DNA of 64,000 bases from a virus (Duplodnaviria; Caudoviricetes). Position 1 is the first letter of the stretch; each line of letters opens with the position of its first letter. Shown here one piece after another: positions 9,710-46,628 of this stretch. A program made the position numbers and the translations under genes. The notes below the pieces were generated by a model that worked only from the letters and a program-made list of their open reading frames with translations, had not been told where the DNA came from and ran no database searches. The DNA is taken from the IMG/VR virus record IMGVR_UViG_3300043822_000021, positions 4,641 through 68,640 of that record. One strand, given 5' to 3'.

Positions 9710-10021
9710 TTAGTAATTATCGAACCAGTTCTTATCTGGTTCTTTTGGCTTCAATAATTCCTTTAAATCCTTTTCGGCAATCTCGCCGTTATATATGAGC
9801 CTATCTAAGAACGTTTTAAAAGCCTCCGATGCCACCAGCTGATTCCGGAGGGCCATTACCACGCTCTCTGGGCACGTTTTGAGGGTTTCGATTATCGCCC
9901 CTTGATAATCCTCCAACCACTCCTGAGTTATTTGTTTGACCAATTCCGCCTGTTGGGCTTTGTCCATATCCTCTATCAGCCGGGACTGCTGTTCTAATTC
10001 CGCTTTGTCCATCAAATCCAC
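9710..10021 (-). CDS. Small helical protein downstream of the portal, overprinted on the portal 3' end
   Basis: GTG/ATG start with a GGAG(TAGG) RBS inside the portal ORF; natural helical composition. Confidence 0.65.
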   Translation of the reverse strand: MDLMDKAELEQQSRLIEDMDKAQQAELVKQITQEWLEDYQGAIIETLKTCPESVVMALRNQLVASEAFKTFLDRLIYNGEIAEKDLKELLKPKEPDKNWFDNY

Positions 10022-11972
10022 CTACTCCCATCTGACTTTGTGCGTTCATCGAGCCACCGAATAGTGCCTGTAATTCAGGAGGCAACTGCATCAATACTTC
10101 TGCCGGTAATGTGCCAGTCTGTAAATAATACTGCATGGCTTCCGGAGGAAGTGCCGCCAATACCTGCTGGCGCAGGGACATTTCCATAATCATTCTCTGC
10201 TGTATTACGTCTGGCTCTGTAATGTAGTCCGCATAATTCTTGAATCCTGCAGATTCTATCCACTTTTTGAACAAGTTATAGACGTTCTGGGGAGTAGCAA
10301 TCTGCATACCAGCACTAAGAGTCTGCATAATAGCTGTCAGTATGCTCTGTAACTGCATCTGTGTTGATTCTTTAGTGGCTATACTGATACCAGCATTAAC
10401 AACCAAATCGAAATTGCCTTGTAAGTCATCCGGGCTTATGTGTAATTCCTTATTTGTAAGGCGGATTACTGTTTCTTGGTCTATAAACTGCTGATTCAGA
10501 CCAATCATGAACCGGAACAGTTCGTACATGCCGGTTTCAGCAAACATGCGAGCAATCAATTCCAAACGCTGAGACGACTGTCCGAGGATAGCCGATATAC
10601 CAGTCGCCGTTTTGTTTAACGAGTTAGCGTCTAACCCTTGGTTATACCGGGTGATGCCAGTACGGTTTTCTTTCTGCCCTTCTATATATTCGAGAAACTG
10701 GTACGTATATGGATTCAGCTGATTGACCGGCATAGCCATAGCCACATCCTGCATTGGATGGTTGGCTTTCTTCCGGATGACCGCTCTACCCTGTACATAA
10801 TCGTCTATATTGATAGCATCTTCCGCCAGAATCATTTTAGGGTCATTGGTAAGAGCTATATTGTGTACGATCTGGCGGGTGAGAGCGACTTTCAAGTCCT
10901 GTAATTCACCAATCAATTCAGCGTAAGAACGTTTTACCCAGATACGATGAGGGTCTTTCGTAGGACTGATGGAGAAGAACGGATGTCTGCCCATATAGTT
11001 TGGTTCTACACGGAGAATGGTATCATCACATATAGTGATAATCATATCTTCCAGTACACCATCATTATTCCAGTCTAATTTGGTGTAACATTCATAAATT
11101 GTTACCACGTCACGGGCGTCATCTACGTTGTTATCGAATTTATTGTAATGGTCTCCGATAACATCTTCTACTTCGTCGTCATATTCTAAAGATTCGCTGT
11201 GTTTAGGATGAATCTGGTCTACATTGGCATAAACTCCCTGATTTTCCCGTTCACGCAGGTAACTCATAGTGACTTTTTTCTTGTGAGCAACGAAATTGGC
11301 CTCTTCCAGAGACTTTGCATCTGAGCTGTACAACAATTCAGACACTAAGATATTCTCGATTTTAGGAGAATTCTTCACATAATACGGGGAAATATAGGTA
11401 ACTTCCATGATTCCGTATTCATCCGGAGGTGTAACTTCCAAAATCTGGACATTCTGCTGTTGCAATTCCTGAAAAGCACGGATATTCATATGCTGTTTTA
11501 ATGTCTGTTCTGCTTCCTTTCTATCCCAATAGCATTTAATAATACCCATGCCAGTAATAAGAGCGTCTTTAAACCAGTTATAAAGGATAGGAAATATGCG
11601 GTTCTGACGCTGTAACTGGTACGTAAGCAATTCCTGCATTACTTCAGCATTTTTATCATCCTCTTCAGATACCCCCTGAACAGTGATAATTTCATCACCG
11701 CCAGTAAATACCTTGATGAGAGACGGAAGTGCCCATTCAATCGTATCTGTTACGTCCGTGCTGACAAGAGAACTGAATTTAGACAGCCGTGGGAACTTAT
11801 TCTTGTAATAATCCTTATCGGCATAGTAAATTTCGTACCGTTCTTTGACAGTTGGGAGTATGACAGACTGCTGATAGTCTTCTGCGTCGCTGATATCATG
11901 CTGAATAGCTGTGACAAGACTCTTGTCGATATCATCAATCGTCGGATCGGTCTTGTTATTAACGAAACTCAA
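9816..11972 (-). CDS. Portal protein (SU10/P22-like)
   Basis: 718 aa. DTIEWALPSLIKVFTGG, WFKDALITGMGIIKCYW, YMGRHPF and ENRTGITRYNQGLD motifs typical of podovirus portals. Confidence 0.92.
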   Translation of the reverse strand: MSFVNNKTDPTIDDIDKSLVTAIQHDISDAEDYQQSVILPTVKERYEIYYADKDYYKNKFPRLSKFSSLVSTDVTDTIEWALPSLIKVFTGGDEIITVQGVSEEDDKNAEVMQELLTYQLQRQNRIFPILYNWFKDALITGMGIIKCYWDRKEAEQTLKQHMNIRAFQELQQQNVQILEVTPPDEYGIMEVTYISPYYVKNSPKIENILVSELLYSSDAKSLEEANFVAHKKKVTMSYLRERENQGVYANVDQIHPKHSESLEYDDEVEDVIGDHYNKFDNNVDDARDVVTIYECYTKLDWNNDGVLEDMIITICDDTILRVEPNYMGRHPFFSISPTKDPHRIWVKRSYAELIGELQDLKVALTRQIVHNIALTNDPKMILAEDAINIDDYVQGRAVIRKKANHPMQDVAMAMPVNQLNPYTYQFLEYIEGQKENRTGITRYNQGLDANSLNKTATGISAILGQSSQRLELIARMFAETGMYELFRFMIGLNQQFIDQETVIRLTNKELHISPDDLQGNFDLVVNAGISIATKESTQMQLQSILTAIMQTLSAGMQIATPQNVYNLFKKWIESAGFKNYADYITEPDVIQQRMIMEMSLRQQVLAALPPEAMQYYLQTGTLPAEVLMQLPPELQALFGGSMNAQSQMGVGGFDGQSGIRTAVPADRGYGQSPTGGIGQTNNSGVVGGLSRGDNRNPQNVPRERGNGPPESAGGIGGF

Positions 11973-11983
11973 TGCATCACCTC

Positions 11984-12268
11984 CTACAACTGTCTATTTA
12001 CAATTGTTTCCGGGGAGAATGCCGAAGACATAATGACCCCAGTATCAAAAACAATAATCGAACGTTTCTTTCTACCCCTCGTAGCATCAAATAATTCTCC
12101 AGAATGGAGCTTGCTTGTGTATAATCTCTGCACAGAATTACCAGCATACGGGAGAATGGACGTTACCCGGTTCATATTTACAATGAAACCAAATCCGACA
12201 TTAAGAAACGGGCCGTTCTTATTGTTATCCGTCTTAACCAAATCACGGTTCAACATGTTTGTTTCCAT
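11984..12268 (-). CDS. remA: RemA / DUF370-family DNA-binding regulator
   Basis: FLNVGFGFIVNMNRV..I.P...DATRGRKKRSIIVFDTGVIMSSAFSPETIVNR aligns by eye with Firmicute RemA (LINIGFGNIV..NRI...DAT.GRRTR.VII.D...ILSA.QPET...R). The start was placed at the ATG after an AGGTGA RBS. Confidence 0.82.
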   Translation of the reverse strand: METNMLNRDLVKTDNNKNGPFLNVGFGFIVNMNRVTSILPYAGNSVQRLYTSKLHSGELFDATRGRKKRSIIVFDTGVIMSSAFSPETIVNRQL

Positions 12269-12277
12269 AGCTATCAC

Positions 12278-12463
12278 CTAACAGTAAAAAATTGGTGCTC
12301 CAATACGTGAAGGAGGAACCGGGGGGTTTCCGCCCTTATCGAGTTTGGAGTTCAGTGTTAAATTTGCTAATTCTTTCTCCAGCATGTCTACTCTTTTACT
12401 CAGATGCCAGATATCTTTGGACATTTCTTTAATCTTTTGTTCGTTTATAATAGCTTCCTTCAT
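12278..12463 (-). CDS. Small coiled-coil hypothetical protein
   Basis: MKEAIINEQ... with a GGGG RBS. The longer track start overlaps tRNA-Trp and is not used. Confidence 0.55.
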   Translation of the reverse strand: MKEAIINEQKIKEMSKDIWHLSKRVDMLEKELANLTLNSKLDKGGNPPVPPSRIGAPIFYC

Positions 12464-12488: not shown

Positions 12489-12562
12489 TGGCAAGCCCGT
12501 GAGGAATCGAACCTCAATCTACGGTTTTGGAGACCGTTATTCTACCGTTGAACTAAAGGCTT
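12489..12562 (-). tRNA. tRNA-Trp (CCA)
   Basis: Cloverleaf with ACGGT-CTCCAAA-ACCGT anticodon arm, GGTTCGATTCC T-arm and encoded 3' CCA; one acceptor-stem mismatch. Confidence 0.92.
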
Positions 12563-12565
12563 ATG

Positions 12566-12657
12566 TGGCGGAAAGGATGGGATTAGAACCCATGCGAGCC
12601 TCGTAAGCTCCTAACGCTTTAGCAAAGCGTCCTCTTAAACCACTTGAGTACCTTTCC
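12566..12657 (-). tRNA. tRNA-Ser (GCT)
   Basis: GGAAAGG/CCTTTCC acceptor stem, ACGCT-TTGCTAA-AGCGT anticodon arm, long variable arm and GCCA end. Confidence 0.92.
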
Positions 12658-13450
12658 GTGTTGCAGGGTTGTTTAACGCCGCCCTGCCCGCCGTATAGGA
12701 TAAAACGGTTAAACAATCCTATATCCTTCTCAGGAGAGGTTTTGACCTATGCTCCAAGTAGGCCCTTTACTGTACATCCTTGGGTACAGAACCAGTTATC
12801 TCCCTGTTTTCTTTTACATCTGACCATGGGAAACAGATGGTGGAGCTATTTTGCTAAATTAGTCGAAATCAAGCACACCAACGTGAAGGTTTTAGCATTG
12901 TGCTCTTGCGGGGGAAAGATTCGAACTTCCGTAACTGGGGAATGAGCCCAGTGTCCTCCCATTAGACGACCCCGCCATGCATCGGTTCTTTTCTCTCTTC
13001 GTGGAGCATCGCGCTTCAAGAACCGGAAAGCGGTTTCCCTCGCAAGGGATGTACATCAAGAACCAGCGTCGATATCTGGCCAGTATATCCACACCGTAGG
13101 ACGATGTACGTAGTCCTTCCTAGTACGGCCATGAATCCTTACACATGCCTTCGTATACCAGTCCCCGTAGAGATTCTGGTATAGGTGCAGGGGTGTCACA
13201 GTCGTACCGTCTTGGTTGTAAAAATAAGCGGCGTATAAATACGCCACATCCAAAACTCTCCAAGAAGTTTTCAAGTGCATTCGTTAAAGAAGCCCACTTA
13301 GGCTACTGACCAACACCCAAAGCGTGTTGCAGTCTTTTTACCTAGTCTTTCCAACATTCACAGGCTAACGCCCAGTGCCTATGTTCCGGAGTTTAACGTC
13401 CTCCTGAACGACGAGATATGGATGTTTAAGGGCCTCCCGGCCCTCACCCC
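12658..13450 (-). ncRNA. Large ornate structured ncRNA, GOLLD-like, with embedded tRNA
   Basis: About 795 nt with no credible ORF, packed with hairpins: GGGCC/GGCCC, CAACAC/GTGTTG, GGCGTA/TACGCC, TATACCA/TGGTATA, TCCCT/AGGGA, AACCG/CGGTT, CATCTG/CAGATG, CTGTAC/GTACAG, TAGGAT/ATCCTA, GCAGGG/CCCTGC. The layout is ~470 nt, then tRNA-Met, then ~250 nt. Boundaries are approximate. Confidence 0.6.
12906..12976 (-). tRNA. tRNA-Met (CAT), initiator-like, atypical
   Basis: GGCGGGG/CCCCGCA acceptor with a 1-72 mismatch, CTGGG-CTCATTC-CCCAG anticodon arm with three G-C pairs, GTTCGAATC T-loop; no encoded CCA. Confidence 0.8.
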
Positions 13451-13452
13451 CT

Positions 13453-13839
13453 TTACTGTCTCCGATCAAGAGCAACAAGGGTTCTGGCCAAGCGGTCAAC
13501 GGCCTGTTCCCATAAAGTATATTCCAACGACTCATGGTTTTCGGGTTGGAATGGAGCGAAGATAATATGTAACATTTCGTGCACAAGTACTTCTTCTTCG
13601 TCCATATCGTTTACACACCCCGTGTAATATACAGGGTTGAGTATGCGTATATAACAAGTTTCCGTGGGAAGTGTAATCATAGATTCGCCATCTCTATTCT
13701 GTTCACTCATTGCTTCAGGAGGAACCAGAAAAGCTTGGATTGTCCAAGATTCTTCATGCAGGATTTTCTGCCATTTTCCAACCAGTTTTTCAAGTTCCTT
13801 ATTACACTTGTCCACATCGGTGTAATCCTTATGGGCCAT
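13453..13839 (-). CDS. Small zincin-like (HExxH) protein
   Basis: EEVLVHEMLHI motif; start placed at the ATG with an upstream purine-rich RBS. Confidence 0.6.
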   Translation of the reverse strand: MAHKDYTDVDKCNKELEKLVGKWQKILHEESWTIQAFLVPPEAMSEQNRDGESMITLPTETCYIRILNPVYYTGCVNDMDEEEVLVHEMLHIIFAPFQPENHESLEYTLWEQAVDRLARTLVALDRRQ

Positions 13840-13908
13840 CGAACCACTCACTTTCTGTGTTTTTTTTACATGGCTCCGGTGACAAAGTTATTTGTCTCGG
13901 TGAGCCAT

Positions 13909-15363
13909 TTACATGGCTCCGGCATACGGTATCTCGTCGGTAGTGACTTTTTCATAAGCCGCAACTGGAGCAAAGCTTACTTGGTCTTGATAAGCCAATG
14001 CATCTATCAAATCGTCGTGTAATGATTTGGGAAATGCTAAAAACTCTCCTTCCAGTTCACCTAAGAATGAAGCCCCCATGGGGAACCAGACCGTACCAGC
14101 CTTGAACCTTGGCTGTATTGCCTGTATCCGCATCTCTTTCTTTTCTTTGGCTTCCAAATCCTTTACCGTGAACCAGATGTTGCGTATTGGCATTTCCTTT
14201 TCTACGAAATGACTTAGTGCCGCCTGATAGGCTACTTTTTCCATACCGACATATATCGGGTGATACCGTGTTACCGCTTCGAAGATGGTGTCAATCGTCT
14301 TACTCGGATTCCATCTCCCGTAAGCCACGTCTAAAACAAACCAGTGATTATCTGAATTGACTCCGACTGTACATACCACTGTGTAGTCGGCTGTTTCTTT
14401 TTCAGAGATAGCCAAATCTACGGTAGTGAATATGTTCATGTCTTTGGTATCCAGCTCCTCTGGTTTGTAATATTTGAAGTATTCTTTCCTGAATAACTGG
14501 GTTTCCGGGGAAATAGCTATACACATTTTTTCCCGTTCCCATACATCTAATTTGCCGATGCGTCTGAAGGCTTCCCGTTCTGCCTTTATCTCTTCCTTGC
14601 TCCATCTTTCAGGCCATACGCTGTTACCTTCTGCATCCAAGATGGGTATCCGCACACCAGCAAACTTTAAGTCTTTCTGATTTTCAATGACTCGTTCTAT
14701 CAGACATTTTTCTCCCAGATTATTCCCTATCATGAATATCCGTGTGTTTTTCCCCAAGAACAGTACATCAGACAGGAACCATTCCCAGTCACCTTCCTGA
14801 ACTGTATCTGACTTGGCATCTTCCAAGTCCTGCGGGTCATCTATCAGTACAATAGAAGGTCTGGTATCATGTGAGTTCAAACCACGGATGGCCGCCCCTT
14901 TACCATAGGCTTCAAACCGTACCCACATCTCCTGCCCGTTCTCGTCTTTGAGTATGACTTCAAATCCGTTCTGTGACTGTTCCACTATCCGGATCAGATT
15001 CATCGACAACAGTTCATTGTTCAGCCACTCTTCTTCAATTTCTTTCAGCCTCTTATTGGCCGCTCTCTGGGTGGCCATGATAAAAACAATGTACTGTCTG
15101 TCTTTACTTGGATATGTCAGGCAATGCATCGGGAATGCCCTTAAAACTACGCCCGATTTCCCACTTTCACGGAACCCTTCTACTGCGTAGTGATGCTTGC
15201 CATGTAGCAATATCTGCCCCCACTCTTCTTGGAATGACGGCGTTGCTACTTCCTTGTCTACCGGGAGGAAGATCCTTCGGAACTTCATCAGGTCATCTTT
15301 ACATTCACGGAACATCTGAGCCATTAATACCCTAGGGTCTATATCAGCCATATACCTATTCAC
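13909..15363 (-). CDS. terL: Terminase large subunit
   Basis: Walker A FRESGKS, Walker B VLIDDPQD, RNase H-like nuclease DLAISEKETAD and HDDLIDALAY. Confidence 0.95.
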   Translation of the reverse strand: MNRYMADIDPRVLMAQMFRECKDDLMKFRRIFLPVDKEVATPSFQEEWGQILLHGKHHYAVEGFRESGKSGVVLRAFPMHCLTYPSKDRQYIVFIMATQRAANKRLKEIEEEWLNNELLSMNLIRIVEQSQNGFEVILKDENGQEMWVRFEAYGKGAAIRGLNSHDTRPSIVLIDDPQDLEDAKSDTVQEGDWEWFLSDVLFLGKNTRIFMIGNNLGEKCLIERVIENQKDLKFAGVRIPILDAEGNSVWPERWSKEEIKAEREAFRRIGKLDVWEREKMCIAISPETQLFRKEYFKYYKPEELDTKDMNIFTTVDLAISEKETADYTVVCTVGVNSDNHWFVLDVAYGRWNPSKTIDTIFEAVTRYHPIYVGMEKVAYQAALSHFVEKEMPIRNIWFTVKDLEAKEKKEMRIQAIQPRFKAGTVWFPMGASFLGELEGEFLAFPKSLHDDLIDALAYQDQVSFAPVAAYEKVTTDEIPYAGAM

Positions 15364-15805
15364 CCCTATCTATACCCGTTCCTACTATATTCGTCTAAAT
15401 CTCACCCTTTGTTTCTACTATATGGACAAATTGTCGAAATACCCTACGGAAATTTCCAAAAATTTTTTGAATTACCCATTTTACGATATAGTACTACCCA
15501 TTATATTTAGTATTTTTATTCGTAATTTAGAGTATAATCCCGGTATTGTATGATACTTTTATACAAAAACATAGAATAAATCTATCAAATAGGTAGAAAA
15601 ATCGACATATAAGAGAGACATAACTTCCCTATTTCGCCCGCCGGGGTGGCAAGGAGTCCCAAATGCGAAGCCCCACCCCCATGGGCCGTTTTTTGTGAGC
15701 CGACTAATATCAATTTGTCGTTAGTATAAATGGTAAGTCAAATAAAGAGTTGACAATAGCCTATAAATGGCTTAACCATGCGGTTCAAGCACTTGTCTAT
15801 AGGTG

Positions 15806-25463: not shown

Positions 25464-25500
25464 AAAAAAAATAGCCGGGGATATTATTCCCCGGCTTCTT
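25464..25500. terminator. Bidirectional terminator between convergent blocks
   Basis: AGCCGGGGA/TCCCCGGCT stem flanked by an A-run and TTCTT. Confidence 0.7.
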
Positions 25501-25939
25501 CATTTTCTAACTCTTTTGTGAATCTGGACAAGGTATCTCTTGATACCCTCGATTCAATCGACACGTATTTAGCGCTTTCAGTCTGATTTTTGGATACTGG
25601 ATTAAGTCCTGCTCTATCCAATATATCCTTTGTTGCCTGAAATTTAACGGCATCTGATGTACTGTTTCTCGCTAAGTCTAACATATTCTGTCTCATTTCT
25701 TCAGCATCATCCATAAACTTTATTTCCATCTGTTTCCGCCTATCAGCCAATGCTTCCTGAACGGCCTGATAATCTTCTGGTCTGGATGATTTAGGATACC
25801 CCGCCGCTTTCAGTGCCAACTGTCTATTATTCGTTGTTACCAGTGTATCTACGAATGTCTGTTGCCGTAAGTTAGGTTTTCTCTTTTTCTTCCTCCCCGG
25901 CTTTTTCAAGACATCCAGTTGCGGATTCTTATTAATCAA
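25484..25939 (-). CDS. Terminase small subunit-like protein
   Basis: N(L)RQQTFVD...ALKAAGY HTH and VKFQATKDILDRAG motif typical of TerS. Confidence 0.7.
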   Translation of the reverse strand: MINKNPQLDVLKKPGRKKKRKPNLRQQTFVDTLVTTNNRQLALKAAGYPKSSRPEDYQAVQEALADRRKQMEIKFMDDAEEMRQNMLDLARNSTSDAVKFQATKDILDRAGLNPVSKNQTESAKYVSIESRVSRDTLSRFTKELENEEAGE

Positions 25940-26496: not shown

Positions 26497-26943
26497 CTAA
26501 TGTCGTAAATATTCTTGAATATCGCCGAACTGCTCCGTGTAGCTCGGTATGAGACGATTAATCTTTTTACGGATTTGAGACATCCTCTTTCTCGTGGCAT
26601 TTTCTGATTTGCCAACTATCCTGCCTAACTGGCGATGAGTGATATTTTCCAATGTATAGGACTTGAACATAAACCAGTCTTCTTCTGATAATATGGATTT
26701 GATCCAGTTTATAAAATGTAATATCATCTCATCTTCTTCCCAGCCAATAATGATATCCTCCGGACTCTTCCCGTATTTCAGATACGCATACTTATTGGTC
26801 AGGGCTGTCTTTTTTCTATTCTCGTTTACGTCGTTTATGTATTCTTCTTTATTGGTTATTCTGGTTATATTATCGCAAATTGCTTCATCGTCGATTTCTC
26901 CCGCTTTGTATTTATCAATCAGTTCGTCAAGGTATCTTGCCAT
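26497..26943 (-). CDS. Sigma-factor region 4-like HTH transcription regulator
   Basis: C-terminal LSEEDW...ENITHRQLGRIVGKSENATRKRMSQIRKKI. Confidence 0.65.
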   Translation of the reverse strand: MARYLDELIDKYKAGEIDDEAICDNITRITNKEEYINDVNENRKKTALTNKYAYLKYGKSPEDIIIGWEEDEMILHFINWIKSILSEEDWFMFKSYTLENITHRQLGRIVGKSENATRKRMSQIRKKINRLIPSYTEQFGDIQEYLRH

Positions 26944-39302: not shown

Positions 39303-41525
39303 TTATGCGTAATTTTCTTCAAGGCGAGATGTTTCTTTATCGTATCTGAACTCAGCTAAGTTAGGCCCATACATACCATCACGTGCCTTATCTATTTTAA
39401 GACGGGTAATATTCTCCAATTCTTCCTTTTCCCCGATATCGAGGTTCGGGTCTCTTGCAGGCCTCCAGAGCAGGAACACATAGTCAGCAGATGCTTCTAA
39501 GTCACCCGTGCTCTTTAACTGGCTCATAGTCGGTTCGTCATATGTAGATGCTCCACGGTTCAGCTGAGACAGCATAACGAAGATGATATTGTTATCTTTC
39601 GCCATACCCTTCATTTTCTTTGCCGCCGTTGACGCATCTTCAAAGGTAGATGTCCCCTGCATATATCCGAAGTAGTCAACAAACACAATGTCCACTGGCC
39701 CACCTAACACGTTTTTACTATTCACCAGTTTGATACGTTCATTTATATCGTCGATGCTAAGATGGTTGCCATCAAATACAAGCATACGTTCCTGCAATTT
39801 AGCGATGGCCTTATTTACCATCATATCATCACTAGCAACGTAGCCTTCAACTTCCCCAATCGAGCAACCTATCAGCTTAGCCACGACACGTTCAATGAGC
39901 TTGCCTTTAGGCATTTCTAGGCTAAAGAAGATGGCTCTCATATTATTCTGGCAGATAGCACGGAGCATGAACTCAATGGCAAAATCCGTGTTGTGTGTAA
40001 CAATATAATCACCACACAGGTATGTGTGTTCAGGACTATCTACTGTTATGCACTGCATTTCCTCCTCTCTCCCCAAATCAATTATGTCAGAAATCAGAAG
40101 GACATCAGAATTCCTTTCTGCAACTACTTCATCCTTTTCATTCCACTGTTTATTTCTAAGTTCGCTACTAAACCATTTTGATGATTTGCGCTGGATAGAT
40201 ACTGTGTACTCAAACGTTCCATCGTCATTCATAAGAGATCTGATATAACATCTGCTCCCCAAGCTACGCACAAGTTCTGCAACGTCATTAGCTAATCTAG
40301 GGCTAGAAGTGAAGAATAATGTCTGCCCTCTTTTTCTAACTGTCCCATCTGTGTCTATTAACCCTTTTAATAATTCCATCCTATTTTTTATAGAGTCATT
40401 CATATATTCAAATGGGATAAACTTATCTTTAGATGACGCACCATTAAAAGTCTTCCTAATATAGTTAACTAATTTATTGTTCCTGCCACCACGGAAACAT
40501 AATTGGTTAGGCTGGCCTTTGTGCTCATGCCAAGTGCCATATGCCGACGTTTCCGTTATAACATGAGAGCGTATATCTTTTTCAGGGTTAGTGAATGTTA
40601 TCTGTTTACAGGTAAACCCGCCATCGCCAAGTAAAGCCCCCATGGTATATGGTGGAATAACATGTTCCCTGTTATCAAACTCAACTGCTTTAGCCACAGG
40701 GATACACAAATTTTTTGTTCCATCCGTTCTATGTATTTTATAATTTACAACCATATCTTTTAGCGACATAACCTTCCATTTCCTGCCTTTAACCAAATCA
40801 TCTTTTGTTTTAAATTTCCATAAATGCTCCGAACAACAGTTGACGTAAGTTCCATCTTCAAACACCACCCTATACACATGCTTTTTCCCTTGAGGGAATA
40901 TTGCCCTTACATGGCATACATCCCCATTTTCATCTATTACTTCATCTCCAATGTTTATATTTTTCATTTCTTTGTAGCCAGTAGGGGTAATTATTCTGGT
41001 ATCTAACGTTAACGCCTTGCCTGTACCAGCGGTTGCCCCAACAACTATAACCTGTTTCTTCTCCACTCTCCTGATACAGTTATCAATCTGCTGGAAGTGT
41101 GTCGGAAATCCACCTGTCCTGTATATGGACTTTAAGTCATTGATGCATCCCGTAACATCAGACGCCTCAGCAAGAATATCGTCACTATCTTTCCCCACCG
41201 TATCGAAGTATTCTTTCAGTGTTTCATAGTCTTTATCCCATTTTTTAGCCATTTCCTTGATTATATCAAGGCGGATGAGACCAGACCTGACAGTAGGAAG
41301 ATATTCCTCAACGACATGGTATTTTTCTTCTTCCGTGGAACATTTGCCAACCAGATAGTCAACTACATACCGGTCGATGTGTAACGTTTCCAACTTTGAT
41401 GGGTCGATACCCTCAAGGAGCATATCATTCATGTCCTTGCATGAGTCAGGAACTAAAGCCACACGAACCTGTCTATCAGGGCAGATGGCATTGAAGTAAT
41501 CACGGACTCTGGGAACTCTTTTCAT
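39303..41525 (-). CDS. DnaB-family replicative helicase with intein; its N-terminus is the tail of a TOPRIM domain
   Basis: GATAGTGK|T Walker A split by an intein; FSLEM, VFVDYFG, LSQLNR and LKSTGDLEASAD motifs; N-terminal VRVALVP..CKDMND. Confidence 0.9.
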   Translation of the reverse strand: MKRVPRVRDYFNAICPDRQVRVALVPDSCKDMNDMLLEGIDPSKLETLHIDRYVVDYLVGKCSTEEEKYHVVEEYLPTVRSGLIRLDIIKEMAKKWDKDYETLKEYFDTVGKDSDDILAEASDVTGCINDLKSIYRTGGFPTHFQQIDNCIRRVEKKQVIVVGATAGTGKALTLDTRIITPTGYKEMKNINIGDEVIDENGDVCHVRAIFPQGKKHVYRVVFEDGTYVNCCSEHLWKFKTKDDLVKGRKWKVMSLKDMVVNYKIHRTDGTKNLCIPVAKAVEFDNREHVIPPYTMGALLGDGGFTCKQITFTNPEKDIRSHVITETSAYGTWHEHKGQPNQLCFRGGRNNKLVNYIRKTFNGASSKDKFIPFEYMNDSIKNRMELLKGLIDTDGTVRKRGQTLFFTSSPRLANDVAELVRSLGSRCYIRSLMNDDGTFEYTVSIQRKSSKWFSSELRNKQWNEKDEVVAERNSDVLLISDIIDLGREEEMQCITVDSPEHTYLCGDYIVTHNTDFAIEFMLRAICQNNMRAIFFSLEMPKGKLIERVVAKLIGCSIGEVEGYVASDDMMVNKAIAKLQERMLVFDGNHLSIDDINERIKLVNSKNVLGGPVDIVFVDYFGYMQGTSTFEDASTAAKKMKGMAKDNNIIFVMLSQLNRGASTYDEPTMSQLKSTGDLEASADYVFLLWRPARDPNLDIGEKEELENITRLKIDKARDGMYGPNLAEFRYDKETSRLEENYA
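39990..41015 (-). mobile_element. Class 3 intein (342 aa) with LAGLIDADG homing endonuclease
   Basis: Starts ALTLDT (Ala1); block B EHLW, block F MQCITV, ends IVTHN|T. LAGLIDADG motifs GALLGDGG and KGLIDTDG. Confidence 0.9.
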
Positions 41526-45548: not shown

Positions 45549-46628
45549 ATGAGCAGAAAAAAGGGCAATGGCATGGGGACTGTGTACCGTAGGAAAGACG
45601 GGACATACTGCGTACAACGTACCATTGGTGGGCATCGTGTGACTGCATATGGCAGGAATAAAACAGAAGCCCTTGCCAAAATGAATAAGAAGTTGATATC
45701 CTATCAGTACACAGATAAAGATAAATCATTAGTTACAATGAGTGAATATATTGAGGTGTATAAGAAAACTATACCGGAAGCAAAAAGAACAACTGAAGAT
45801 GTAAGGGCTTTTATATTTGGCCATATAGACAGATTGCTAGGGGATACACTAATAGAGAAAATTAGTGATGATACTATCATACACGTTGTCTCCGATTTGG
45901 CAAAAACTCTTTCAAGCTCTACAACAATATTAATTATCTCCAGAACACTGGGAATATTGGAACATGCCAGACGGCATGGTTACAATATAAAAACAACATG
46001 TACTACTCACGACGTATTCCATCAAAGGAAAAAATTAAAAGAACTGCCATCCATCGAAGATGCTTTGACAGTAATTAATGATGTACATAATTTTATATTC
46101 CAGTGTTGTGGGTACATATCCTTATACTCTGGATTAAGGAGGGGAGAAATATGCGGGCTTCAATGGTCTGATATTAATATGGAAACCGGTGTCATTCATA
46201 TCAACAAGCAAATAGTGGTCACTAGGGATGGATCAAATTACATTACAAGCCCCAAGAATGGTATTGTAGGACAAACAGCGCAACTTATGGATTGTGGGAT
46301 AAATAAATTACGTGAATTGTCGGAGTATTACAAAGAGCATAATATCAAATCAGACTTTGTTTTTGTGTTCCACGATAAACCAGTAAACCCCAGTAGTCTG
46401 GGATGTACATTCAGGAGGGCATTTTTAGCACACGGGATTCACGGGTTCTCCTTTCATGTGTTCAGACATTTACATGCCAGTTTGCTGGCTAGTAATAATA
46501 TCCCATTAATCGCCATAACAAAGCAATTACGGCATTCAAACCCAAGTACCACAGATAGATACCTACACTCTATCACAGACGCCTCTGCGGACGATATTAG
46601 GCGCATAAAAATAAGCCCGTTGCAGTAG
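45549..46628 (+). CDS. int: Tyrosine integrase
   Basis: GLRRGEICGL, HVFRHLHAS, LRHS and TTDRY give the R-H-R-H-Y catalytic set; N-terminal arm-binding domain G.GTVYRRKDG. Confidence 0.95.
   Translation: MSRKKGNGMGTVYRRKDGTYCVQRTIGGHRVTAYGRNKTEALAKMNKKLISYQYTDKDKSLVTMSEYIEVYKKTIPEAKRTTEDVRAFIFGHIDRLLGDTLIEKISDDTIIHVVSDLAKTLSSSTTILIISRTLGILEHARRHGYNIKTTCTTHDVFHQRKKLKELPSIEDALTVINDVHNFIFQCCGYISLYSGLRRGEICGLQWSDINMETGVIHINKQIVVTRDGSNYITSPKNGIVGQTAQLMDCGINKLRELSEYYKEHNIKSDFVFVFHDKPVNPSSLGCTFRRAFLAHGIHGFSFHVFRHLHASLLASNNIPLIAITKQLRHSNPSTTDRYLHSITDASADDIRRIKISPLQ

Follow-up and report, generated by a model that had tools for sequence, protein, structure and literature searches.

A gene on the minus strand of the 64-kb stretch of phage DNA analysed here (hereafter, the window), at positions 11984-12268, encodes a distinct phage-specific variant of the RemA family (PF04025/DUF370), which is real and well conserved. 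The 94-aa product is predicted, from sequence comparison and structural modelling, to be a true RemA-fold protein that represents an old, phage-specific branch of the family. Where it occurs in related phages, the gene always lies tight against a packaging gene, encoding either the portal protein or the small terminase subunit (TerS), which makes the phage's own DNA the likelier target: the protein more likely serves phage DNA than host biofilm genes. A role in DNA packaging is put forward as a tentative proposal, plausible rather than probable.

The phage and its host

The window was taken from a 68,640-bp IMG/VR virus record, classed as complete by CheckV. A tyrosine integrase gene is present (45549-46628, plus strand; PF00589, E 3e-21; phrog_1, E 2e-46), which indicates that the phage is temperate. 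The phage also encodes Cro/CI-type HTH proteins, a PolIII-alpha polymerase, DnaB with an intein, a primase and an Erf/Rad52-like protein, and its portal, capsid and adaptor module is of the SU10/LUZ24 type. Annotated proteins at least 90% identical to the Rad52-like and GH25 proteins of the phage were found in Megasphaera hexanoica genomes, and a related prophage was located in M. hexanoica GCA_012843505.1 (L035), with its integrase gene adjoining the host truA and a VTT-domain gene. An identical RemA-like protein was found on a 343,822-bp metagenomic contig. On these matches, the phage is predicted to be a temperate phage of Megasphaera, belonging to a family of ~65-kb podovirus-like phages.

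Interrupted genes were seen in this phage and in its relatives, as follows: in this phage, DnaB is interrupted by an intein/homing endonuclease (LAGLIDADG/Hom_end; window positions 39303-41525, minus strand); in relatives, intein/homing endonuclease insertions were found in the portal protein (1042-1059 aa; L022, L031, L032 and L046) and in the large terminase subunit TerL (812-818 aa; L011, L016 and L018), and TerL was split by a 230-aa HTH ORF in three genomes (L005, L031 and L034).

The RemA-like gene and its family membership

The open reading frame extends from an ATG at 12268 to a TAG at 11986-11984 (minus strand). It is preceded by the Shine-Dalgarno sequence AGGTGA, located 5 nt before the ATG and overlapping the stop codon of the upstream ORF p61; an alternative GTG start at 12277 falls within this Shine-Dalgarno sequence. 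The gene was characterized by Pfam and Foldseek searches and by dN/dS analysis.

The sequence-only reading had assigned the product to the RemA/DUF370 family, with a basic loop, and had named an HMM search against DUF370 as a check. The assignment was borne out by that search, in which PF04025 gave a significant match (E 2.1e-18, 66.6 bits; gathering cut-off, 26 bits) covering profile positions 1-72 of 73, by a phmmer match to the RemA of Geobacillus thermodenitrificans (PDB 7BM2, E 1e-10) and by the RemA fold of the structural model described below. When the phage's own genome was searched in six frames with PF04025, a single match was obtained (66.4 bits), corresponding to the RemA-like gene. 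The scores obtained with the RemA equivalog models of NCBIfam lie below their cut-offs (NF046064, 60.8 bits versus 140; NF003315, 65.7 bits versus 87). The protein had no match in PHROGs, which hold no model for this family.

Values of dN/dS were 0.02-0.04 against close relatives (dS 0.1-1.2) and 0.18-0.29 against distant relatives, pointing to strong purifying selection on the gene.

Genomic context in the window

The gene order in the window is as follows, all on the minus strand: TerL (13909-15363; phrog_38, E 4e-77; PF17289), a cluster of tRNA-Trp, tRNA-Ser and tRNA-Met genes (12489-12977), p61 (12278-12463), the RemA-like gene and the SU10-type portal gene (9816-11972; PF23899, E 1e-156). 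Structured RNA is also present in the tRNA cluster. The RemA-like gene had been described as lying between an RNA cluster and the portal gene, at the head of the morphogenesis block. The first part of this description holds; the second does not, since TerL is the first gene of the operon.

The portal gene has a TTG start 11 nt past the stop codon of the RemA-like gene, and its Shine-Dalgarno sequence GGAGGTGA begins at that stop. No sign of a promoter or terminator belonging to the RemA-like gene was found when its surroundings were scanned, and direct and inverted repeats around it did not exceed chance. The gene is operonic and translationally coupled and is kept in single copy across the phage family, and so is no moron-like insert.

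The ORF p61, directly upstream of the RemA-like gene, encodes a 61-aa coiled-coil product without a family match in Pfam or PHROGs; its start was set at 12463, because a longer ORF would run into tRNA-Trp. It is translationally coupled to the RemA-like gene. Most of the close relatives (clade A, below) have a short coiled-coil ORF (46-63 aa) at this position, and in one of these (L045) the ORF overlaps the RemA-like gene by 16 nt. The p61 product may be a partner of the RemA-like protein.

Two further features were noted around TerL. Directly after it lies a gene (13453-13851, minus strand) for a 132-aa protein that contains an HEMLH motif and weakly resembles SprT (E 0.014); the more distant clade members searched gave no homologue. 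On the other side, at a distance of about 260-320 nt upstream (window positions ~15620-15685, minus strand), a G-rich hairpin, GGGGTGG...CCACCCC, is followed by GAAATAGGGAAGTTAT; the hairpin is kept across the clade (also in L003-L022), with varying flanks. The region upstream of TerL has no obvious -35 element.

Related phages: two positions and one absence

Relatives were grouped by their packaging proteins. Clade A comprises this phage and relatives with portal proteins 73-99% and TerL proteins 73-98% identical to its own. The order TerL, variable stretch, RemA-like gene, portal was seen in every member examined, and the gap between the RemA-like and portal genes is 11-14 nt in ten relatives. 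This arrangement persists at RemA-like identities of 44-60%, and even of 38% (P0235/L045) and 33% (P0015); the RemA-like protein thus diverges faster than the portal protein (44-60% versus 73-99% identity). The variable stretch between TerL and the RemA-like gene contains differing sets of tRNAs, the structured RNA, an HExxH protein and a short coiled-coil ORF.

The sister clade, clade B, consists of five IMG/VR genomes of 63-66 kb (CheckV completeness 95-100%; four with terminal repeats and one provirus), in which the portal protein is 66-72% and TerL 62% identical to those of this phage. Each of the five genomes carries exactly one PF04025 gene, found at another site, ~10-14 kb from the portal gene, in the order p148, exonuclease-like p265, RemA-like gene, TerS. 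Here the last 11-14 nt of the RemA-like gene are shared with the beginning of TerS. An overlap of this kind was also found in two other genomes (L043 and L041); in L041 it is 8 nt long, and the downstream gene matches Pfam Terminase_2. The TerL-portal junction of clade B holds a gene for a GroES/Cpn10 co-chaperonin (PF00166, E 4e-18; L058:1231-1497 and L060:1213-1482), of which no homologue was found in the genome of the present phage.

In a more distant relative (L026/G001; portal 59% identical), TerL abuts the portal gene and a TerS homologue is present; a search of the whole genome found no PF04025 gene. In the cultured phages LUZ24 and PhCF1.2, TerL likewise abuts the portal gene, with TerS upstream and nothing in the TerL-portal junction. 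Both the TerL-portal junction and the TerS-side position are thus variable accessory slots.

A protein encoded in a variable slot could be cargo with some other role: a ring binding the neighbouring tRNAs and structured RNA, a DNA-end or anti-defence factor, or a general nucleoid-like protein without a part in packaging. The TerL-portal junction is a hotspot that, across relatives, also receives tRNAs, an ~800-nt structured RNA, the HExxH protein and GroES, and one relative lacks the RemA-like gene altogether. Against this, the gene has long been retained in both clades, in one copy and under strong purifying selection, the sister-clade copies are not adjacent to RNA genes, and the residues kept are those that contact DNA phosphates in RemA. 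We consider a cargo role of this kind improbable.

Predicted fold and key residues

An AlphaFold2 model, built with 71 sequences, had a pLDDT of 87 overall and above 94 for residues 21-92. It contains six strands and two helices (strands at residues 21-25, 28-31 and 35-40, a helix at 44-56, strands at 59-62, 70-74 and 79-82, and a helix at 86-93), and the predicted fold of residues 21-92 is the wedge-shaped beta-beta-alpha type of RemA (7BM2). Residues 1-20 form a disordered, variable N-terminal extension modelled at low confidence. When the model was searched with Foldseek, the best ten matches were RemA chains (10/10), with an rmsd of 0.8-1.3 Å over 72-75 residues and a TM-score, normalized to the target, of 0.86-0.94.

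The functional residues of RemA used for mapping (the ring pair, the DNA-contacting loop and helix alpha1) were taken from a structure-function study (PMC8481266). In the RemA of G. thermodenitrificans (Gt), R50, R51 and R53 contact DNA, through its phosphates; R18 and D59 form the inter-subunit salt bridge of the ring; and P29, R32, D36 and D/E39 of alpha1 are involved in the formation of back-to-back 16-mers and in RemA activity (PMC8481266). By alignment, the three DNA-contacting residues correspond to R66, K67 and R69 of the phage protein and are kept, within the basic loop FDATRGRKKRS (residues 60-70), where R64 and K68 are additional basic residues. The pair G65-R66 is invariant, being present in 13/13 aligned phage sequences from both clades and in 10/10 bacterial sequences. 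The ring pair R18/D59 is also kept, as R34/D75. The alpha1 residues P29, R32, D36 and D/E39 correspond to S45, R48, S52 and H55, and only R32 is mostly retained across the clade.

In the sister clade, the equivalents of R18-D59 are E-K (P0052), D-K (P0076) and E-N (L054 and L056). The charge swap (E-K or D-K) is a compensatory change at the subunit interface and so supports retention of the ring; a swapped interface also argues against mixed rings with any host RemA of the R-D type.

Origin and distribution of the phage copies

An exhaustive phmmer search of 1.84 billion representatives returned 441 matches to the RemA-like protein. Beyond the phage clade, the closest single-domain matches were 35-46% identical; they carried no name, a generic RemA/DUF370 name or a Chloroflexota/Dehalococcoidia label, and none was named Megasphaera. 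The sequence-only reading had suggested a phylogeny of phage versus host copies. A quick tree built with IQ-TREE split 58 bacterial-type representatives from all portal- and TerS-adjacent phage copies with an SH-aLRT support of 94, a value obtained from a short alignment (96 columns) with long branches. The tree fits one ancient capture followed by relocation between two packaging-gene neighbourhoods, as an indication and not as proof.

The gene had also been described as not a standard phage gene, in agreement with the lack of a PHROG family and with the searches of deposited phages. A megablast search of the region against deposited phages gave no match. A tblastn search of 50,697 INPHARED records gave only five matches, all of them bacterial remA loci, and thus no bona fide deposited phage: the records (MT835528.1, MT835604.1, MT835883.1, MT836046.1 and MT838072.1; L047-L051), labelled "UNVERIFIED Bacteriophage sp." and originating from human faeces, are misfiled bacterial chromosomal fragments. 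In four of them (L047-L050), yicC-remA-gmk-rpoZ precedes priA or coaBC, and the fifth, a short fragment of high GC content, encodes a RemA of bacterial type. The literature yielded no paper that connects DUF370 or RemA with phages; one candidate, PMC8138268, was discarded, the match being to DUF3701.

Bacterial genomes and larger protein sets were searched as well. A search of 185,579 species genomes for the RemA pattern found no prophage copy, and the portal profile, run on the same genomes, picked out a single contig (70 kb, assigned to a Lachnospiraceae MAG), which carries no RemA-like gene. A profile search of a 5.8-billion-protein set gave at least 8000 RemA-family matches, and the name Megasphaera occurred in none of the 120 listed; neither the Atlas nor the literature yielded a RemA of Megasphaera. 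An IMG/VR copy (L024, 38% identical) lies on a contig without matches to the TerL, TerS, portal or capsid proteins of the phage; on ORF layout alone, this copy may belong to a bacterial remA locus embedded in viral sequence. Ten longer representatives, each with one RemA domain plus partial PseudoU_synth_2, Mntp, PRC/RimM, formyl transferase or YicC domains, look like chimeric gene calls, and no TerS-RemA fusion was found among them.

Tandem RemA domains in one polypeptide were encountered in metagenomic proteins: seven repeats in 531 aa (P0003, whose gene is located on a 2.9-kb contig), about ten matched stretches in the 991-aa P0012, and 2-3 repeats in each of four further proteins (P0013, P0010, P0011 and P0014). 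Such proteins may be single-chain rings.

The sequence-only reading had suggested that the phage copy reprograms host biofilm or matrix genes or poisons host RemA rings. A host-directed mimic of this kind, which presupposes a RemA in Megasphaera itself, would bind the RemA regulon of the host, or enter its rings, and so affect matrix, biofilm or stress genes. Clade A does keep the bacterial R-D interface pair and the basic loop, and lysogenic conversion is conceivable for a temperate phage. However, an identity of at most 46% to the bacterial-type representatives, together with the separate branch, argues against a recent capture from the host; the gene shows no sign of its own promoter or terminator and is coupled to portal or TerS; it evolves faster than the portal gene, which would not be expected of a mimic that has to follow a conserved protein of the host; and proteins with the altered interfaces of the sister clade should not mix with R-D rings. 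Given an old phage branch, an operonic, coupled, single-copy gene and the charge swap of the sister clade, action on the host is not favoured, and we regard it as very unlikely.

The small terminase and the sigma-like protein p148

A TerS candidate of 151 aa is encoded ~10 kb from TerL (25484-25939, minus strand; phrog_2538, E 3e-14; phrog_51, E 8e-5); its match to PF03592 (E 2e-4) is below the cut-off. A homologue was present in 5/5 relatives searched, including one without the RemA-like gene. The TerS gene stands at the 3' end of a replication and nucleotide-metabolism block, convergent with a plus-strand block, and this split-terminase layout is kept in relatives. The RemA-like protein had no match to TerS families in Pfam or PHROGs. 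A replacement of TerS by the RemA-like protein was considered and ruled out, a separate TerS being kept with and without the RemA-like gene.

Upstream of TerS lies a gene for a sigma-factor-like protein, p148 (26497-26943, minus strand), with weak similarity to Sigma70_r4 (E 0.05) and to the sigma-factor family phrog_1740 (E 0.003). Its AlphaFold2 model had a pLDDT of 81, and the PDB matches were almost all sigma factors, with region 4 superposing at an rmsd of 1.2-1.5 Å (Foldseek probability ~1, E 0.03-0.3). In every group, and even in the relative without the RemA-like gene, p148 is kept a short way upstream of TerS. From the modelled fold and the conserved position, p148 is likely to be a RinA/ArpU-style late regulator of the phage, and because of this conserved sigma-like protein, the RemA-like protein is probably not the main late activator.

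In Firmicutes temperate phages, late activators (RinA/ArpU-type genes) sit just before TerS. The RemA-like protein could nevertheless be a phage transcription factor, the ring wrapping DNA at phage promoters and activating or boosting late transcription, or repressing early transcription. In the sister clade the gene ends the replication block before TerS, a classical late-activator position, and the TerL upstream region, with no obvious -35 element, could need an activator. Transcriptional control, at the eps and tapA promoters, is moreover the only established function of the RemA family (PMC8481266), and the DNA-binding loop is kept.

Several observations stand against a regulatory role. 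In clade A the gene follows TerL within the late operon and is coupled to the portal gene, which implies high late expression rather than low expression early on; in the sister clade the overlap with TerS leaves no space for an intervening promoter; and p148 stands beside TerS in all groups, even where the RemA-like gene is absent. No repeated or periodic operator-like array was found in genome scans: when the whole genome was scanned for repeats with the 10/11-bp period that marks RemA sites, no outlier emerged (maximum z, 3.6-4.6), and a conserved motif upstream of TerL had 5 matches genome-wide versus 6.6 expected. The alpha1 residues needed for RemA activity (P29 and D36/D39) are also not kept. 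The earlier suggestion of a co-opted late-gene activator therefore survives as possible, but is weakened by the location inside the late operon, downstream of TerL, and by p148 in the classical activator position; overall, we judge a transcription factor role unlikely.

A proposed role in DNA packaging

The preferred reading, a suggestion that may well be correct but that we would not call probable, is that the RemA-like protein is a ring-forming, DNA-wrapping accessory factor that acts on phage DNA at packaging. The proposed mechanism is as follows: the protein would assemble into a ring, approximately an octamer, as RemA does, and DNA would bind around the outside of the ring via the invariant T-R/K-G-R-K loop. 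It would be produced along with the packaging proteins, through co-translation with the portal protein in clade A or with TerS in the sister clade. The ring would then bend or wrap phage DNA and so allow assembly of the terminase or handling of the concatemer. The protein would thus be an accessory: it would not stand in for TerS, nor would control of host matrix genes be its main task.

Three considerations led to this reading: the gene stayed beside a packaging gene while diverging to ~35% identity; a factor that switches the late operon on would hardly be expected to have moved into it; and a separate sigma-like regulator exists. On the other side, with variable slots at both positions, adjacency to packaging genes could reflect permissive insertion sites and not function, and the relative L026/G001, with TerS but no RemA-like gene, indicates that packaging in this type of phage does not need the gene. 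The alpha1 residues of the 16-mer (P29, D36 and D/E39) are not kept, no TerS-RemA fusion was found, and the lack of an outlier in the 10/11-bp periodicity scan counts against this reading too.

A more specific form of the packaging reading is that the RemA ring is a third dedicated component of the packaging initiation complex, IHF-like, acting with TerS, TerL and the portal, possibly via p61. Such a component would explain the attachment of the gene to TerS or portal despite divergence to ~35% identity; this form is possible, yet doubtful.

Comparison with known systems

RemA is otherwise known only as a chromosomal biofilm and stress regulator in Bacillus, and a DNA-wrapping ring is an unusual binding mode. 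An ancient phage-only branch abutting a packaging gene would give the RemA fold a second biological role and would supply a new candidate accessory factor of terminase or portal in the little-studied phages of gut and rumen diderm Firmicutes, while the compensatory charge swap offers a simple handle on ring formation. For annotation, virome genes of this kind should not be labelled as biofilm regulators or as auxiliary host-manipulation genes, and five INPHARED "phage" records with a RemA gene are shown here to be bacterial fragments.

With RinA/ArpU-type late activators, the RemA-like gene of the sister clade shares the position immediately upstream of terS, but there is no homology; the RemA-like ORF overlaps TerS or sits inside the late operon, and p148 is the better candidate for such an activator.

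TerS subunits also assemble into rings, with DNA proposed to bind on the outer surface. Both TerS (Terminase_2, PF03592; phrog_2538) and the RemA-like protein are small and encoded with packaging genes, but they have no sequence or fold relation, and, as the phage has its own TerS, the RemA-like protein would be at most a partner of TerS and not a substitute.

IHF helps the lambda terminase, and the DNA-wrapping protein p6 serves phi29 DNA. The likeness proposed to IHF at lambda cosB and to phi29 p6 is one of function, by analogy: a sequence-tolerant bending or wrapping of DNA that would aid another machine. Neither shares the RemA fold; IHF is a product of the host, and the roles of p6 lie in replication and transcription.

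The closest known system is RemA itself (YlzA) of B. subtilis and G. thermodenitrificans (PDB 7BM2, 7BME and 7P1W; PMC8481266), which has the same fold (~1 Å over 75 residues), a core of similar size, the R18-D59 pair and the G-R-[RK]-x-R loop in common with the model of the phage protein. Identity is however just ~32-40%, the phage protein carries 20 additional, disordered residues at its N terminus and lacks a C-terminal tail, and it does not keep P29, D36 and D/E39 of alpha1, the residues of 16-mer formation and activity. Finally, its gene is set in a phage packaging module, and not in the bacterial context yicC-remA-gmk-rpoZ.
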